NCBI GenBank assembly: GCA_011364985.1
Contig: RDOC01000004.1
Coordinates: 152,218-216,217 of the forward strand
Source: Candidatus Thorarchaeota archaeon
GTDB lineage: Archaea > Asgardarchaeota > Thorarchaeia > Thorarchaeales > Thorarchaeaceae
DNA length: 64,000 bases
Direction of reading: 5' to 3'
A program made the position numbers and the translations under genes. Numbering within the stretch: position 1 is the first letter of the stretch; each line of letters begins with the position of its first letter. Shown piece by piece: positions 7,461-26,788 of this stretch. The notes below the pieces were generated by a model. The model was not told the DNA's origin. It saw only the letters and a list, made by a program, of their open reading frames with translations, and did not search any database.

Positions 7461-9017
7461 GTGAGCCTAGATTCTGCACATCTGTGTTGTCAAAAATGCA
7501 ATCAGAACAGAGCCAGTCATCTCTGTGAAGATTGCGGGAGCATTTTTTGCAACACCTGCATAGAAAGCAGAAACAACGATTACATGATGTGCAAGGACTG
7601 TCACTACCCAATTGATAACTCTTCTCAAGGAGAAGAGATTCTAGAGTGCCCCGAGTGTGGTTCCAAAAATCTAACTAAAGCGCGAAGAACCGAGGATATC
7701 TGCCCTCAATGCCATTCTGGTAAAATCACATTAGTGGAGGAAAAGAGGCGTTCACTTGCACAAGAAATGCGCCATGCTGTGATGACACTGCATTATGGTC
7801 CTACTAAACTAAAGGAATTCGGGAATAGACTTGATTCTGCAAAGAGAACTCTCGTATCATTGCGGATGGCAAATTTTCTGCATTATCATTGGCTCGAAGA
7901 TAAGCTCGAGGAGATTCAAGAAGAACTTCCAGCCATTAAGAATAGAATCACCAATCAAGGAGAGATAATCGCGAAACGAATGGCTGCAGAAACAAAGGGA
8001 CTTATGGATTATAATCGATGGACGCCTGACCAGTTCCCTTTCATTGAAGGGGTTACAAATAGAATATCAGAGATCGGAAGGCAGTACAAGCAGAATACAG
8101 ATGATGCATTTCAGGATTGTAAGGCGAAGCTGAAGGAACTTGTCGAACAGCTGGATGGCCTCAATTTCTATCGATCAGAATTCTCGGCCTTCTATGAACA
8201 TGTAGACCTATCTGTGGGCGAGCTTCCTGTTTGCGCACTGCCCGAAGTCAAGGTTATCGGTAGTGACTTTTTGAAACACGACAAAGCATCTGGAACGCTC
8301 TATATGACAAATAAGCGGTTGATACTCATTGCAGAAAGAGGCCTTCTCTGGAAGAACACAGGACCAGTATTTGACTTCCCCTTAATTTACCTGAACAGTC
8401 TTGAAGAAGATGGGAGATTCAGAAAAAAGCTTGTCCTAAGAATGAAGCAGGGATATATCCGAATATCCTGCAGTGAGGAGACTATGGAGGTCCTTCCGGA
8501 TTATGTGTCAATTGCAAAAAGATTCGACAAGTACGTGCAAAAAGATATGCAGAGAGTCCGAAAGATTGAGCAAGCCAACGTCAATATCAGCGATGTAAGA
8601 ATGAAGATAGAGAGTCTGGTCTACTCCCTTTTGACAGGAGATTTGGATTCTGGATACTACGGAGGACGTATAGATTCATTTGAATATCGTCCGGACATCA
8701 GGCATGGTGAACGTGGCCATTATGGAAGTGATTATGGCCGCCAAGATGTGCTGAAAGAAGAACTGAACAGAAGATTTGGCCTTGGAGGAAATGGCAGCGA
8801 TGCATCTCAATATGAATATGCTAGTTCCATTGACTCTTTGAAGAGGAGTGCCATAGAAATCCAAGATGCAATCCACGACACCATCCGTATGATGAGAAGC
8901 GGTCACCTTGTTGCGGAGGACTTCATTCGAAGATATCGTGGACTTGTTAGAGACTCATACGAAACCCAAAAGCAGATTGAACGAATTGATAGAACGAAAC
9001 ACGGATATGGTTGGTAG
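7461..9017 (+). CDS. Multi-Zn-finger/B-box + coiled-coil + PH/GRAM(GLUE)-like + Vps23/TSG101 steadiness-box-like protein (ESCRT-I-like)
   Basis: Six CxxC pairs in the first ~85 aa; long heptad region; GTLYMTNKRLIL PH/GRAM-type strands; C-terminal AIEIQDAIHDTIRMMRSGHLVAEDFIRRYRGLVRDSY resembles the TSG101 steadiness box; adjacent to ESCRT genes. Confidence 0.7.
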   Translation: MSLDSAHLCCQKCNQNRASHLCEDCGSIFCNTCIESRNNDYMMCKDCHYPIDNSSQGEEILECPECGSKNLTKARRTEDICPQCHSGKITLVEEKRRSLAQEMRHAVMTLHYGPTKLKEFGNRLDSAKRTLVSLRMANFLHYHWLEDKLEEIQEELPAIKNRITNQGEIIAKRMAAETKGLMDYNRWTPDQFPFIEGVTNRISEIGRQYKQNTDDAFQDCKAKLKELVEQLDGLNFYRSEFSAFYEHVDLSVGELPVCALPEVKVIGSDFLKHDKASGTLYMTNKRLILIAERGLLWKNTGPVFDFPLIYLNSLEEDGRFRKKLVLRMKQGYIRISCSEETMEVLPDYVSIAKRFDKYVQKDMQRVRKIEQANVNISDVRMKIESLVYSLLTGDLDSGYYGGRIDSFEYRPDIRHGERGHYGSDYGRQDVLKEELNRRFGLGGNGSDASQYEYASSIDSLKRSAIEIQDAIHDTIRMMRSGHLVAEDFIRRYRGLVRDSYETQKQIERIDRTKHGYGW

Positions 9018-9638
9018 TTATATACCTAGTTCTTTCTCTAGTTCCTTAATATCTTCCTCAAGCGTACCTATATCTGTGTCAGCTGTCATTTCGGCAGTTC
9101 TTTCTGCCAGCCCTGCCTCAACATCGAGCTCATGCATTGCCGTGGTGAGGTCCTCTGAGGAAACATCCATTGACGCATCAAGGGCATCTGATGATATGCT
9201 GCTTTCAATTTCAAGCTCCTCAAGACGCCGGGAAATCTCATCAGCATTCTCTACTAATCTTGTGGCTTCAGTTGCGTCACCGAGCATCCCAAGCAGCTTT
9301 GCCACTTCCTGAAGCGCAATATTCGTTTTGGCTGATGTTTGGGCACGGTTTAGATGTGCAAGAATCTTAAGAATCTGGAGCCTAGATTTGTCAAAGGACA
9401 AGGCAAGTCGTCGGAAGCGAATCATCTCTGTGGCATAGGTTTTGAACGCTTCACCTTGACCAGCCTTTCTGGCTCTTATGGCCCGAGCTCTTGTCTCGCC
9501 CTCCTCTTTCTCAAGCTTGTTTCGTTCACGTGCAAGCTGCTTTGCCAAGATTCGTAGTTGACTAGAGATTTCTCCAACGTCGGGTTTTTTACGCCCCCAG
9601 GAGAAGGCCTTTCTAAACGAACTCAAGAGTTTCACCAC
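9018..9638 (-). CDS. ESCRT-III (Snf7 family, Vps2/24/46-like)
   Basis: Basic helical N-half with amphipathic start, KTYATEMIRFRR pattern, acidic C-half, terminal LEEDIKELEKELGI MIM1-like helix; next to vps4. Confidence 0.9.
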   Translation of the reverse strand: MVKLLSSFRKAFSWGRKKPDVGEISSQLRILAKQLARERNKLEKEEGETRARAIRARKAGQGEAFKTYATEMIRFRRLALSFDKSRLQILKILAHLNRAQTSAKTNIALQEVAKLLGMLGDATEATRLVENADEISRRLEELEIESSISSDALDASMDVSSEDLTTAMHELDVEAGLAERTAEMTADTDIGTLEEDIKELEKELGI

Positions 9639-10213: not shown

Positions 10214-11431
10214 ATGTCTGATAGACTAGACCAAGGACTCAGGAACCTCCTTAACAAAGCAATTGATCTTGATAGAAGAGGAATGGCAAAGGAGGCTGCC
10301 CAATACTATCTAAAGGCTAGCAAGATCTTGATCAAGCTCTCAAACGCGGCTTCATTGCCGTCTATACAGAAGCACTATCTTGATAGAGCGCAGGAGTGCG
10401 TTGATAGGGTCCGTTACATCTCAGGCATAAAGAAGAAGGCTAGAGGGCTAAGAAACGGGCTTACGACCCCAGTATCCCCAATGCCACATTCAGAATCCGA
10501 GGCAGTTGCTGAGCACGCTCCGCAGGCAGATGCGGAAGTTGATGAAGACACTCGTAGGCTTCAGGAGATGATATCTGATACCATTATCTCGGAGAAGCCC
10601 AATATCAAGATGAGTGAAGTGGCTGGACTTGAGAAGGCGAAACAGGCAATTCATGACGCAATTATAGCACCTATGAAGCATCCTGAACTCTTCAAGGGCA
10701 AGGCAAGACAACCATGGAGAGGTATTTTATTTTACGGGCCAGCAGGTTGCGGAAAGACCCTGATAGCTAAAGCTGTTGCGTCTGAAATTGATGCGACTTT
10801 CTTCAATGTATCAGCGGGTAATATTGTTAGCAAGTGGTTGGGAGAATCAGAGAAATTGGTGATGAATCTCTTTGATTTGGCAAGAAGAAGCCAGCCGGCG
10901 ATCATTTTCATGGATGAGCTCGATTCAGTTGGAGTATCAAGATCAGGAGATGATGTAGGAGGAGAAAGAAGGCTGAAGACTCAGCTGCTTACGGAACTCC
11001 AGGGTCTTGAAAGCGATCCAGAGGAGAGAATAACCGTCATAGGTGCTACAAATCTGCCATGGGAACTTGACTTTGCCTTACGGTCTCGATTTGAGAAGAA
11101 GATTCAAGTTCCACTTCCGGACAATGAGGCAAGGACACACATCTTTGAAATACATATGGAAGAGGTCAAAATTGCTCCAGAAGTCGATTATGAGGAATTG
11201 GCGGACCTAAGCGAGGGTTATAGCGGCCGCGAGATTAGCGTCGTCTGTAGAGAGGCGGCAATGGAGCCCATAAGAGATCTGCAGCGTACAGGCAGACTAG
11301 ATGACGGAGAGGTAATACTAGAGGTGCGCCCTGTTTCAAGAGAAGATTTTCTTGAGGCCATTGAAGACATCCGTCCAGCAACCTCACCAGAAGACTTGAG
11401 AAGATACACCGATTGGGCGGAGGGGTCCTAG
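10214..11431 (+). CDS. vps4: Vps4-like AAA ATPase with MIT domain
   Basis: N-terminal MIT (AIDLD..G..KEAAQYY), GPAGCGKT, SKWLGESEKLV pore loop, FMDE, GATNLPWELD, C-terminal Vps4-type helix. Confidence 0.93.
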   Translation: MSDRLDQGLRNLLNKAIDLDRRGMAKEAAQYYLKASKILIKLSNAASLPSIQKHYLDRAQECVDRVRYISGIKKKARGLRNGLTTPVSPMPHSESEAVAEHAPQADAEVDEDTRRLQEMISDTIISEKPNIKMSEVAGLEKAKQAIHDAIIAPMKHPELFKGKARQPWRGILFYGPAGCGKTLIAKAVASEIDATFFNVSAGNIVSKWLGESEKLVMNLFDLARRSQPAIIFMDELDSVGVSRSGDDVGGERRLKTQLLTELQGLESDPEERITVIGATNLPWELDFALRSRFEKKIQVPLPDNEARTHIFEIHMEEVKIAPEVDYEELADLSEGYSGREISVVCREAAMEPIRDLQRTGRLDDGEVILEVRPVSREDFLEAIEDIRPATSPEDLRRYTDWAEGS

Positions 11432-11434
11432 GCT

Positions 11435-12154
11435 GTGGACGTCAAGGAACGACGTAGAGAGCGAAAAAACACAAAGTCAGCAGAAGAAGAACGACCAAGA
11501 AAGACCGAAGGAGAGACCATAGAAAAGGAGGAGAAGACAGGAGATCAATCCAGTACGATCATGGCACTAACGGAAAGAACAACCCAGGCCACTCAGCGCC
11601 AGCTTGAAATACTGCCCACCGAAACCGTTGTGGAGGAGATCGATGAAGAGATACTACTCCCAGACTGGGGAGACATCACTCAAAGCGAATGGATGTATAG
11701 TATTCCGGACAGAGAAAAAGACAAACCAATGTGGGCAGAGGAATGGAGCGACTTTCTCTTGGAGTGGACAAAGAAAAAACACATTCACGTGATTTCTGTT
11801 TCCTTGTTCCTCAGCGAGCCACCTTTCAAAGACATTGCTGGGAAGGTAGATTCGTTTCGATGCATCGGTGAAGTTCTTGTAAAGAAGGAAATTGCCGAAT
11901 GGCTGGATAAGAATCGACGACAGCTTCGAGTCTATTGGAGATTTCTAGAAGAGTGGGCAGATTCTGTTTATCGATGGGCACTGGAAAGCGGGACAGTTCG
12001 ACTTGATGTGAAGTCAATAGTAATTCAAGAAGAGGCCCAAGCATTTTCGAATCTTCCAGAGAGAGACCTCCATATCATCATGACACTCCTCGTAGAGAAA
12101 CAACTGGCGGAATGGATTGACAAGAAGAAAGGTGCTATCAAAATCCTACTTTGA
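11435..12154 (+). CDS. vps25: ESCRT-II Vps25-like tandem winged-helix protein
   Basis: WAEEWSDFLLEW and VYWRFLEEWADSVYRWA motifs typical of Vps25; 3 nt downstream of vps4. Confidence 0.85.
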   Translation: MDVKERRRERKNTKSAEEERPRKTEGETIEKEEKTGDQSSTIMALTERTTQATQRQLEILPTETVVEEIDEEILLPDWGDITQSEWMYSIPDREKDKPMWAEEWSDFLLEWTKKKHIHVISVSLFLSEPPFKDIAGKVDSFRCIGEVLVKKEIAEWLDKNRRQLRVYWRFLEEWADSVYRWALESGTVRLDVKSIVIQEEAQAFSNLPERDLHIIMTLLVEKQLAEWIDKKKGAIKILL

Positions 12155-12194: not shown

Positions 12195-12947
12195 TCATTT
12201 GGCAATATGACCATCTTGGCTATCACGTGCCCTCAAGCCTGGGAAATAGTACCGCCCACCAGTGGAGAATTTGATATCTGCGACAGCCATGCCTGCGTCA
12301 ACAAGACTAGACAGGACCCTTCGAGCATGATCCTCAGACCATTTCAGTTTGATCATGACTTCTTCAACTGAAACATAGCCCTTGGAAGCCGCCAGATTAA
12401 CCACATCGCTTTGATCTTCTCGTAACTCAAGAGGGCGTAATTCGACAACTTTCACGCCACCTTTTAGAACACGAATTCCAGGGATTAGACCATGATCGGA
12501 AACCCGATTGACAGCCTCGATCACATCGCTGTAGCTCACACCCTTTATCTCCGGCAATCGTTTCACAACTTCCACGATTAAGTCAGCCAGCCCCATTAGC
12601 CCCTTTGAAGCATTTGCAGTGGCAACATCAAGTATTGCAAGTCCTATGAAATCATAATACTCGTCTTGCGTCAATCCATGATGAAAAAGGACTCCCTGCC
12701 TACGGTCCATATTTAGCATCCGAATAGCGTCAGGAAACCGCTCATACACGCGTTCTGTATCCAAGAACGCTGTAATGCTCATGCCAGTCCGTCGCAATTC
12801 AGCAATACTTGACTTGAGTTCCATAACAAGTGCTTCGGACTCTCGTTGAAAGGACCTAATGTCAACTACACCCATGTCGTACATCTTCCTAAGCTGATCA
12901 AGAGTAGCAAGTGATGCGTAGAACTCGGTTTGTAGTCGGCTTTGCAT
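12195..12947 (-). CDS. Fusion of Vps28 N-terminal-like domain and Vps22/36 (EAP30) winged-helix domain
   Basis: EFYASLATLDQLRKMY..F..E...L...ITAF..RFPDAIRML (Vps28-N-like) followed by YYDFIGLAIL...PLELREDQ..KGYVS...LKWS..A..VL..LV..G...YYFPGL (EAP30); likely start MQSRL at 12947. Confidence 0.8.
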   Translation of the reverse strand: MQSRLQTEFYASLATLDQLRKMYDMGVVDIRSFQRESEALVMELKSSIAELRRTGMSITAFLDTERVYERFPDAIRMLNMDRRQGVLFHHGLTQDEYYDFIGLAILDVATANASKGLMGLADLIVEVVKRLPEIKGVSYSDVIEAVNRVSDHGLIPGIRVLKGGVKVVELRPLELREDQSDVVNLAASKGYVSVEEVMIKLKWSEDHARRVLSSLVDAGMAVADIKFSTGGRYYFPGLRARDSQDGHIAK

Positions 12948-13098
12948 GGGTTGGAATCCCTTCATTCCTATGGCTGACCCAGACTGGGCATACCAAGGGA
13001 TGAGCAAGAATGTGCTTTAAGAGAGAGTATTATCCGATTATGGTTCAATAGGAAGTAGTCCCATCCAGCTGCAATGTATCTTTGGACGATGAAGAGTA

Positions 13099-25597: not shown

Positions 25598-26788
25598 GTG
25601 GTGGCATTGAGCGGTAGAAGAAAGCTTGTCCTCTTTGACCAAACGCAGAACGAACGTGGAAGGTTAGATACGACCTATTCCGACTTGGGAGAACTTCTCA
25701 GAGATAATGATTTCGATGTAGAGCCTTATACTGAGTTCATGCTTCTAGCAAAGAATTTGAGTAACGCAGATGTGCTGGTCTTCGGATGCCCAAATAGCTC
25801 GAAGCTAAGACCAGCAGAAATTGATGTGCTGAAGAGATTCGTTCAAAAGGGAGGGGGCTTGATGCTGCTTTCGCTCTCGGGAGGAGACCGAGGCCTAATG
25901 AACAACATGAGCCAAATCTCAAAAGGCTTTGGCATTAGCTTTGAGAATACCGCGGTAAAGGATGAAAGAAGTAACGCAGGCTTACCTACAATGCCCCTGA
26001 TTTCAAACATAGCCCCACACCCAACAACGGTTGATGTAAACGACATTTTGGTGCCATCGGCTTGCACACTCTCGGTGAGCGAAAATGCAAAGGCTATTGC
26101 AACGACTTCGGAAACGGCGGAACCATCCAATAAGCCAGTAATAGCCATCGCAGAAAGTGGAAAAGGCAGAGTGCTTTGCTCAGGAAGCTATGAGATCTTC
26201 AGAAGAGGTGGAGGTCTAAAGCACCAAGGCAACAAGGTTCTTGCTGTAAATGCCTTCAAGTGGCTAAGCGGAGAAGTCACGGTCGCCAAACCAAGCAAGG
26301 TTGCTGAATCCCAGAGAAAAGATTCGGACAAGGAATCCAAGACTCCTAAAGGTACAAAGATGGAAACTTCCCCGGAGATTGAAGCAACACTTCGTAGGCT
26401 TGTTAATGCAGTATTCGACCTTCAGAAGGATATATCAAAGGTTACAAAAGAAACAGAGAAGATTGAAAAGAATATTGAAAAGCTCAGGAACCAGTTTCAG
26501 GATTTTGCAGAAAAGACACAATCGCAACTTGGAGTAATGATTCCTGCAAAACAATTCAAGACGGAAGAAGAAAACCGCATGGCGGAGCTTGAAGGAGATA
26601 TCAAGGCGCTGAGGAAGGAAATTGACTCGGTTCAACAGCTTCGAAACCATATTGAGGAACGCCACTCTGCTGCAGCAATGCCCAAAGAAACCTATGAGGA
26701 GCAGGCAAAGAAACTTGATACACGAATGAAAAGTCTTGAGGAGAAACTGGCAAAGAGAGAGATGGAACTCGCCGACTTGGTCTCTTGA
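25598..26788 (+). CDS. GIFT/IFT52-like (class I GATase-like) domain + C-terminal coiled coil
   Basis: VLFDQTQNE, DVLVFGCP, EIDVLKRFVQKGGGL, GKGRVLCSGSYEIF, N...A.NAFKWL; heptad-rich C-terminal ~140 aa; no signal peptide. Confidence 0.7.
   Translation: MVALSGRRKLVLFDQTQNERGRLDTTYSDLGELLRDNDFDVEPYTEFMLLAKNLSNADVLVFGCPNSSKLRPAEIDVLKRFVQKGGGLMLLSLSGGDRGLMNNMSQISKGFGISFENTAVKDERSNAGLPTMPLISNIAPHPTTVDVNDILVPSACTLSVSENAKAIATTSETAEPSNKPVIAIAESGKGRVLCSGSYEIFRRGGGLKHQGNKVLAVNAFKWLSGEVTVAKPSKVAESQRKDSDKESKTPKGTKMETSPEIEATLRRLVNAVFDLQKDISKVTKETEKIEKNIEKLRNQFQDFAEKTQSQLGVMIPAKQFKTEEENRMAELEGDIKALRKEIDSVQQLRNHIEERHSAAAMPKETYEEQAKKLDTRMKSLEEKLAKREMELADLVS

Follow-up and report, generated by a model that had tools for sequence, protein, structure and literature searches.

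The open reading frame (ORF) at positions 7461–9017 of the window (the whole 64,000-nucleotide stretch of Candidatus Thorarchaeota contig RDOC01000004.1, assembly GCA_011364985.1, that was analyzed) almost certainly encodes the Thorarchaeal ortholog of the Asgard protein family Znr_CC_PH_SB: its product carries three N-terminal zinc sites, a coiled coil with a PH domain after it, and a C-terminal steadiness box, and it is homologous to the named members of the family. [quoted passage not shown] The existence of the family, its architecture and its proposed ESCRT-I-like role are already in print, the latter two in papers of 2022 and 2024 (PMC9192718, PMC10936438), and the finding is therefore a rediscovery. 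What our analysis adds to the published account is the near-universality of the family in Asgard archaea, its phylum-wide pairing with one ESCRT-III paralog, its flexible tether, and the existence of gene calls that truncate its zinc region; these additions could guide experiments.

Makarova et al. (mBio 2024, PMC10936438) describe Znr_CC_PH_SB (asCOG cog.011556) as a protein combining three zinc ribbons with a coiled coil, a PH domain and a steadiness box, a likely ESCRT-I component with a PH domain expected to be membrane-associated; in their Loki GC14_75 example the gene lies two genes from a Vps20-family ESCRT-III gene. Hatano et al. (2022, PMC9192718) call it the “freestanding steadiness box protein”, used ThorAB25_08990|SB in two-hybrid assays, and reported from two-hybrid data that the Loki and Thor steadiness-box protein “may interact with Vps28”; ThorAB25_08990|SB, as given in their supplement, ends in a sequence identical to the C-terminus encoded at the corresponding Thor AB_25 locus in our set (L019), and the AB_25 protein is a 54%-identical ortholog of the window protein. 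Compared with the published Znr_CC_PH_SB, the window protein has the same domain content and order, the same ESCRT-III (Vps20 family) neighbor and the same inferred place in ESCRT-I, and nothing essential differs. Two details do: the first eight cysteines of the window protein appear to form one B-box-type binuclear module, followed by one ribbon, rather than belonging to a set of three ribbons; and Thorarchaeal forms are about 520 aa long, compared to 620–830 aa for Loki-type forms, because their tether is short.

The ORF starts with GTG, and the N-termini of orthologs, which begin M-T-x-D, align at this codon; because the orthologs begin at an aligned Met, the GTG start is correct. Nearly all close homologs of the product are labeled Candidatus Thorarchaeota. 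No Pfam or NCBIfam family reached threshold with the window protein alone, and its domains were called from family profiles and from an AlphaFold2 model. We used an ortholog set of 30 Thorarchaeal proteins (47–67% identity) and a family set of 73 representatives (down to 18% identity). The model, built on a 73-sequence alignment, has a pLDDT of 89 and a pTM of 0.70 and contains, beyond the three long helices given in Table 1, a β-sandwich (residues 256–336), a capping helix (339–353), a disordered segment (403–447) and a C-terminal hairpin (helices 448–479 and 485–514). A preliminary description of the window had listed the same domains (zinc finger, coiled coil, PH and steadiness box), and that list is correct: all six CxxC pairs that it counted are there and are conserved family-wide, its coiled coil of about 150 aa corresponds to the long helices that the model places over residues 92–244, its PH/GRAM-like domain has a PH fold according to both Foldseek and VIA-align, and its C-terminal steadiness box is of the Vps23 type according to the family profile and the structure.

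The C-terminus of the window protein by itself matches no Pfam family, and a profile restricted to Thorarchaeal C-termini reached yeast Vps23 in the PDB at E-values of only 0.08–0.26; the match became significant with C-termini from outside Thorarchaeia. We combined the Thorarchaeal C-termini with twelve others, aligned through the motif G-x-[IL]-x-x-E-[DE]-[FY]-[IF]-[RK]-x-Y, into a profile (A4) that placed the yeast Vps23 core first among 177,635 PDB sequences (2f66_A, E = 6.2e-6; 2p22_A, 1.6e-5; 2caz_A, 2.8e-5), with an alignment spanning both helices of the hairpin, and that matched human TSG101 (6vme_B) at E = 0.008. Pfam Vps23_core (PF09454) likewise matched individual non-Thorarchaeal C-termini (E = 2.5e-5 to 0.013), and 23 of the 73 family members in all (best, 7.2e-6). 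The modeled structure agrees: when the 80 C-terminal residues were modeled separately (pLDDT 84), the ten best Foldseek matches of the hairpin were all chains of ESCRT-I core or headpiece entries (2f6m, 2f66, 2caz, 2p22 and 6vme), superposed with a root-mean-square deviation (rmsd) of 0.6–1.4 Å over 54–63 columns at weak E-values; for headpiece chains of Vps23 and TSG101 the overlay was within 0.6–1.0 Å. VIA-align did not discriminate on the hairpin alone: 99 chains had Z ≥ 8, and Vps23 scored level with unrelated hairpins. Matches of the hairpin motif to phycobilisome linkers (ApcE, Glr2806) were treated as a chance short motif; no stretch of them passed alone.

The hairpin is thus shared with Vps23/TSG101, being homologous by profile and superposable in structure, and a position upstream of ESCRT-II, as in Vps23, is putative. 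The rest of the protein is different: the family protein has no UEV domain (no UEV match was obtained), no proline-rich region and no stalk helix continuous with the hairpin, and its zinc fingers and PH domain have no counterpart in Vps23. Six-frame searches of 41 Thorarchaeal and 21 Loki-like genomes with Vps23_core returned ten sub-threshold matches, nine of which were the C-terminus of the studied protein itself; the tenth is a 175-aa ORF (L124:1450–1977, plus strand; G005:C78; E = 1.3e-4), a candidate small stand-alone steadiness-box protein in one Thorarchaeal genome.

The stalk analogy of the preliminary description, which had put a zinc finger and a GLUE-like domain on the ESCRT-I stalk, did not hold: the long helices are separated from the hairpin by the PH domain, a pair of short helices and 52–64 aa of disordered linker. 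The steadiness box sits instead on a variable and flexible tether, which measures 52–64 aa from the PH region to the steadiness box in Thorarchaeal members and 24–379 aa across the family. Within this variable disordered sequence, the short helix at residues 429–439 (window 8745–8777) shows F-[RK]-x-[ED]-L-[ED]-R as a conserved motif; we compared it by eye with MIT-interacting motifs and rejected that assignment, as the spacing is unsuitable.

Structural comparison placed residues 242–358 on PH domains, with 2hth_B and 2cay_A among the Foldseek matches. The VIA scores were effectively tied among several kinds of PH domain: MTMR2 PH-GRAM (Z 12.8, rmsd 2.5 Å, 106 residues aligned), Lam6 (Z 12.2), the GLUE domain of human EAP45 (2hth_B, Z 11.6, rmsd 3.9 Å, 108 aligned; 2dx5_A, Z 10.8, 26% identity) and a bacterial PH domain (Z 11.2). 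Because of this tie, the term “PH domain of the GRAM/GLUE kind” is justified and “GLUE” specifically is not; support for the GLUE assignment of the preliminary description does not exceed that for PH-GRAM or bacterial PH. The Pfam matches over the 73 members, all sub-threshold, are spread in the same way (bPH_3 in 43, GRAM in 15, Vps36 GLUE in 8 with a best E of 1.8e-4), and the Vps36 GLUE model (PF11605) matched neither the window protein at all nor any of the 73 members over its cut-off. Searches with Pfam GLUE across Thorarchaeal and other genomes gave only weak matches, either in the PH domain of this family or in small stand-alone PH-like ORFs; two of the latter, of 118–121 aa (G027:C22:123517–123729 and G128:C1:403444–403665), match Vps36 GLUE weakly (E = 0.015–0.022), with scores equal to those of the PH domain of the studied protein. 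In comparison with Vps36/EAP45, likewise an early-acting ESCRT protein with zinc fingers, the PH fold corresponds (19–26% identity to EAP45 GLUE in the structural alignment); here, however, it is carried by a steadiness-box protein and not by a winged-helix ESCRT-II subunit, has no zinc-finger insertion, and equally resembles MTMR2 PH-GRAM, Lam6 and bacterial PH domains. A cluster of basic residues (R286, K/R297, R319, K322 and K/R323) is conserved across the family, and its composition fits, without proving, an anionic ligand. The top rows of a Foldseek search with the whole model were DH-PH tandems (rmsd 17–24 Å; 5–18 Å in VIA over the helices and PH domain), which we rejected as matches driven by the PH domain.

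The six CxxC pairs are C10/13, C22/25, C30/33, C44/47, C63/66 and C81/84. All twelve cysteines are invariant in the 30 Thorarchaeal orthologs and are present in at least 71 of the 73 family representatives. The first four pairs are spaced C-x2-C-x8-C-x2-C-x4-C-x2-C-x10-C-x2-C, a pattern matching the B-box1-type two-zinc module, and to judge from this spacing the eight cysteines probably bind two zinc ions as a cross-brace. The likeness to a B-box proposed for the first pairs is real (35 of the 73 members match zf-B_box, PF00643, and two orthologs, P0006 with 25.2 bits and P0050 with 26.4 bits, exceed the Pfam cut-off of 24.1 bits), but it is weak in the window protein, which matches zf-B_box below threshold (E = 0.011, 16.3 bits) and an ANCHR-like B-box, also below threshold, at E = 0.0026. 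The last two pairs would form a zinc ribbon separate from the eight-cysteine module; the model has strands at residues 71–80 and 89–91 in this region. No specific family was matched by the helices that follow (residues 92–244).

Deposited gene calls truncate this region. The call in the source genome of the window (P0002) has 427 aa and begins at residue 92, so that the whole zinc region (window 7461–7733) is lost, and the Thor AB_25 record used by Hatano et al. (PMC9192718), like their construct, begins at the position of residue 21, without the first CxxC pair. Such truncations may have weakened the published two-hybrid constructs through an incomplete zinc module. Coordinates of the features of the protein and of its ESCRT neighbors are given in Table 1.

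Table 1. Features of the 7461–9017 product and neighboring ESCRT genes (window coordinates)
Feature	Position	Strand	Basis
Whole gene, almost certainly a Thorarchaeal Znr_CC_PH_SB member	7461..9017	+	518 aa plus stop, ORF open throughout
Eight-Cys module C10, 13, 22, 25, 30, 33, 44, 47 (residues 8–48)	7482..7604	+	B-box1-like spacing, invariant Cys
Predicted four-Cys zinc ribbon C63, 66, 81, 84 (residues 61–86)	7641..7718	+	Invariant Cys; sub-threshold Zn_Ribbon_TF and DZR matches
“Coiled coil”, three long helices (92–136, 144–177, 189–244; residues 92–244)	7734..8192	+	AlphaFold2 pLDDT 94–98
PH domain of PH-GRAM/GLUE kind (residues 245–358)	8193..8534	+	VIA, Foldseek, family Pfam matches
Two short conserved helices after PH (residues 363–392)	8547..8636	+	Ortholog alignment, AlphaFold2 model
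G/D/R/Y-rich disordered tether (residues 393–447) with one short conserved helix (429–439)	8637..8801	+	pLDDT 43–62
Vps23-type steadiness-box helical hairpin (residues 448–514)	8802..9002	+	Family profile against PDB, Foldseek, Pfam Vps23_core
Snf7/ESCRT-III, lower-scoring paralog class	9018..9638	-	Pfam Snf7 E = 4.2e-7; convergent, abuts stop codon of 7461–9017
Vps4 (MIT + AAA + Vps4_C)	10214..11431	+	Pfam; syntenic in Thorarchaeia
Vps25-like ESCRT-II subunit	11435..12154	+	Pfam ESCRT-II E = 2.2e-13; syntenic in Thorarchaeia
Vps28-type hairpin fused to Vps22 winged helices	12195..12947	-	EAP30 E = 5.6e-13

By Pfam, the gene order around the locus is ArgRS, PmbA and TldD, the 7461–9017 gene, Snf7, Vps4, a Vps25-like gene, an EAP30/Vps22-like gene and AspRS. 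The last ESCRT gene of this series lies in the ORF 12195–13007, whose true start, judged by ortholog alignment, is the Met at 12947. With a profile (A5) of the N-terminal 95 residues of its product and of 28 orthologs, the top four PDB matches were to the N-terminal domain of yeast Vps28 (E = 0.076–0.13), aligned on its hairpin, and Pfam VPS28 (positions 2–76) matches the Vps22-fusion gene in six Thorarchaeal genomes. The Vps28-Vps22 fusion that the preliminary description had seen beside the gene is thus recovered: Vps22 winged helices bear a Vps28-type hairpin at their N-terminus, in line with the “Vps22 fused to SB” already published.

The ESCRT cluster is kept in 75 Thorarchaeal loci. The Snf7 gene adjoins the family gene in 71 of the 75, and in up to 71 of them synteny covers the whole series that starts with ArgRS and ends with AspRS, so that TldD/PmbA and the tRNA synthetase genes are included. 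Outside Thorarchaeia, Vps4, Vps25 and Vps22 are absent within 10 kb of the family gene, and a Snf7-family gene lies near it, usually in convergent orientation, in 13 further Asgard families: the gap is roughly 0.1–1.3 kb, with about one gene at most between, in f2, f4, f6, f7, f9, f12, f15, f16, f18 and f21, and 2–9 kb in f8, f19, f24 and one f9 genome. In f5, f14, f25, f26, f27 and f28, several of whose contigs are short, the Snf7 gene is absent or unlinked. The gene is therefore linked to ESCRT in related genomes, through a Snf7 neighbor across the phylum and an ESCRT cluster in Thorarchaeia; with the match of its hairpin to the steadiness box, neither of the two observations that the preliminary description had named as refuting it (a C-terminus unlike a steadiness box, or a gene unlinked to ESCRT) was made. 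In the Thor bin8 chromosome (CP070658.1, L002), the Vps28-N/Vps22 gene is about 11 kb from the zinc-finger/PH gene, and neither Vps4 nor Vps25 was detected between the two; this layout looks like a rearrangement or insertion, the other Thorarchaeal loci being tight clusters.

The family is not confined to the Thorarchaeal lineage. We found 168 close homologs, mostly Thorarchaeal, and 93 representatives after clustering at 50%, with homology over residues 9–392; the family profile matches 285 of 301 sampled Asgard genomes (88 of 90 high-quality ones) and 28 of 30 families. About six families (f3, f13, f17, f20, f22 and f23) match only at E = 1e-6 to 1e-11, and Loki-type proteins of 620–730 aa match at E = 1e-130 to 1e-153; when 15 genomes from 15 other families were searched again, each gave a single match (E ≤ 1e-15). 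Ubiquitin-family genes were found in none of the 41 Thorarchaeal genomes at E ≤ 1e-3 and in all 21 genomes of the Loki-like control family, in agreement with Hatano et al. (PMC9192718). Given that Thorarchaeia have no ubiquitin genes, any function of the 7461–9017 product is independent of ubiquitin, as the preliminary description had supposed. Its further idea of a replacement for the UEV domain does not hold as one specific to Thorarchaeia: the family is near-universal in Asgard archaea, including lineages with ubiquitin. A six-frame UEV search found nothing in Thorarchaeia and essentially nothing in the Loki-like control either, and is hence uninformative; according to a 2023 preprint, only Loki- and Thorarchaeia are without UEV-Vps23.

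The mechanism that we favor starts from established elements: the domain set, the homology of the hairpin to Vps23, the Vps28-like hairpin on Vps22, the ESCRT-III neighbor and the lack of ubiquitin in Thorarchaeia. We propose that the steadiness-box hairpin would pack on the Vps28-type N-terminal hairpin of the neighboring Vps22 fusion, its putative docking partner; that this pair of hairpins would amount to a minimal ESCRT-I headpiece coupled directly to ESCRT-II; that the conserved basic cluster would let the PH domain hold the complex on a membrane or ligand; and that the zinc module would recognize a partner or cargo, or drive self-association. Vps25, the convergent Snf7-family ESCRT-III protein (placed in the Vps20 family by the published annotation of Loki) and Vps4 would act downstream, and in Thorarchaeia the pathway would run without ubiquitin.

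Several points weigh against this mechanism. The interaction and lipid-binding steps are ones that we infer, and a predicted PH fold alone is no demonstration of lipid binding. At residue 297 (window 8349–8351), inside the basic cluster, the window protein itself has W, where 29 of the 30 Thorarchaeal orthologs have R and 56 of the 73 family members have K or R. In the model, unlike in Vps23, other segments part the helical region from the steadiness box. The match of the Vps22-fusion N-terminus to Vps28 is sub-threshold (E about 0.08). As the entire block is syntenic, the adjacency to ESCRT genes in Thorarchaeia is not independent evidence; and the conservation of the ESCRT-III neighbor alone outside Thorarchaeia points to a different direct partner.

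That partner is central to the strongest alternative, which we consider possible although unlikely: the PH-anchored protein may recruit the convergent Snf7 paralog directly, as CdvA recruits CdvB in TACK archaea, with no obligatory bridge through ESCRT-II. The family gene and the convergent Snf7 gene form the sole neighborhood conserved phylum-wide (f1 is among the families in which they are adjacent or about one gene apart), the same pairing appears in the Loki GC14_75 table of Makarova et al. (PMC10936438), and the same authors report similarity between the steadiness box and CdvA. The Pfam CdvA coiled-coil model matches the C-termini of 4 of the 73 members, weakly (L114, E = 3.1e-4), and the CdvA filament of S. 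islandicus ties with Vps23 in VIA (Z 9.5). CdvA, moreover, lies close to the membrane, is encoded next to an ESCRT-III gene and has a helical hairpin related to the steadiness box. Against this, the family protein has a PH domain and zinc fingers in place of the PRC barrel of CdvA (none was found in the model or by Pfam), no winged-helix-binding peptide was identified in it and its ESCRT-III binding is putative; the sequence profile places its hairpin nearer to that of Vps23 than to that of CdvA; the pair of genes is absent or unlinked in the six families named above (some with short contigs); and convergent orientation means that the two genes are not co-transcribed. Recruitment of this kind and the ESCRT-I-like mode that we favor are not mutually exclusive.

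A role in a ubiquitin system, with the cross-brace zinc module serving as a RING/B-box ligase or a ubiquitin-binding finger in a TRIM-like protein, is very unlikely. The eight-cysteine module does give weak PDB matches to RING (RNF4, E = 0.0075), FYVE and PHD chains, the legend of Hatano et al. (PMC9192718) labels RING, CC, PH and 23-SB in the ESCRT-I-like proteins that it draws, Loki GC14_75 among them, and some lineages with the family do have ubiquitin. Its best Pfam matches, however, are to B-box and not RING, and its twelve cysteines have stayed invariant in Thorarchaeia despite the absence of ubiquitin, a result obtained with a working positive control. The likeness to TRIM proteins is one of layout alone (a B-box-like finger, long helices and a C-terminal binding domain): the B-box is not preceded by a RING, nothing points to the antiparallel TRIM dimer, and the Thorarchaeal lineage has no ubiquitin system. 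Finally, that the protein is a generic coiled-coil/PH scaffold unrelated to ESCRT, with a hairpin resembling a steadiness box by chance, is largely refuted and highly improbable: helical hairpins are common, as the VIA ties illustrate, and the window protein alone has no significant Pfam match, but Vps23 ranks first in the whole PDB sequence set with both helices aligned, the leading Foldseek matches are all ESCRT-I entries, and the ESCRT-III neighbor is kept across more than 12 families.

The family bears on how ESCRT was recruited before ubiquitin and UEV-Vps23, a live question of eukaryogenesis. A bolder proposal, which we regard as speculative and rather doubtful, is that this family, and not UEV-Vps23, was the ancestral and is still the principal entry point to ESCRT in Asgard archaea, as a membrane-bound, ubiquitin-independent nucleator in a fixed pair with the convergent Snf7 ESCRT-III protein. 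If so, the nucleator would be a functional bridge from the CdvA-CdvB system of TACK archaea to eukaryotic ESCRT-I/II, and the sole Vps23 equivalent in Loki- and Thorarchaeia, which lack UEV-Vps23.

Two Snf7 genes are present in high-quality genomes of Thorarchaeia and of the Loki-like family; the copy beside the family gene is the lower-scoring paralog, and a second, higher-scoring one (60–77 bits) lies away from the ESCRT cluster in the Thorarchaeal genomes G005, G027, G037, G075 and G128. The source genome of the window, which is 74% complete, has the adjacent Snf7 gene only, which probably reflects a gap in the assembly and not a lineage with a single ESCRT-III. Four Thorarchaeal proteins of 413–522 aa (L120–L123: G227:C10, G069:C68, G055:C21 and G251:C110) match almost the entire Pfam VPS28 model (positions 10–185) below threshold (E = 3e-4 to 9e-3) and may correspond to the multidomain Vps28-C proteins of Makarova et al. 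(2024). A weak second Snf7 match in the window, at 26417–26656, was rejected as ESCRT-III, as it is the coiled coil of a GIFT-domain protein; this 396-aa protein (window 25598–26788, plus strand) carries a GIFT domain of the IFT52 type (E = 4.7e-16, above the cut-off), after which comes a long coiled coil.

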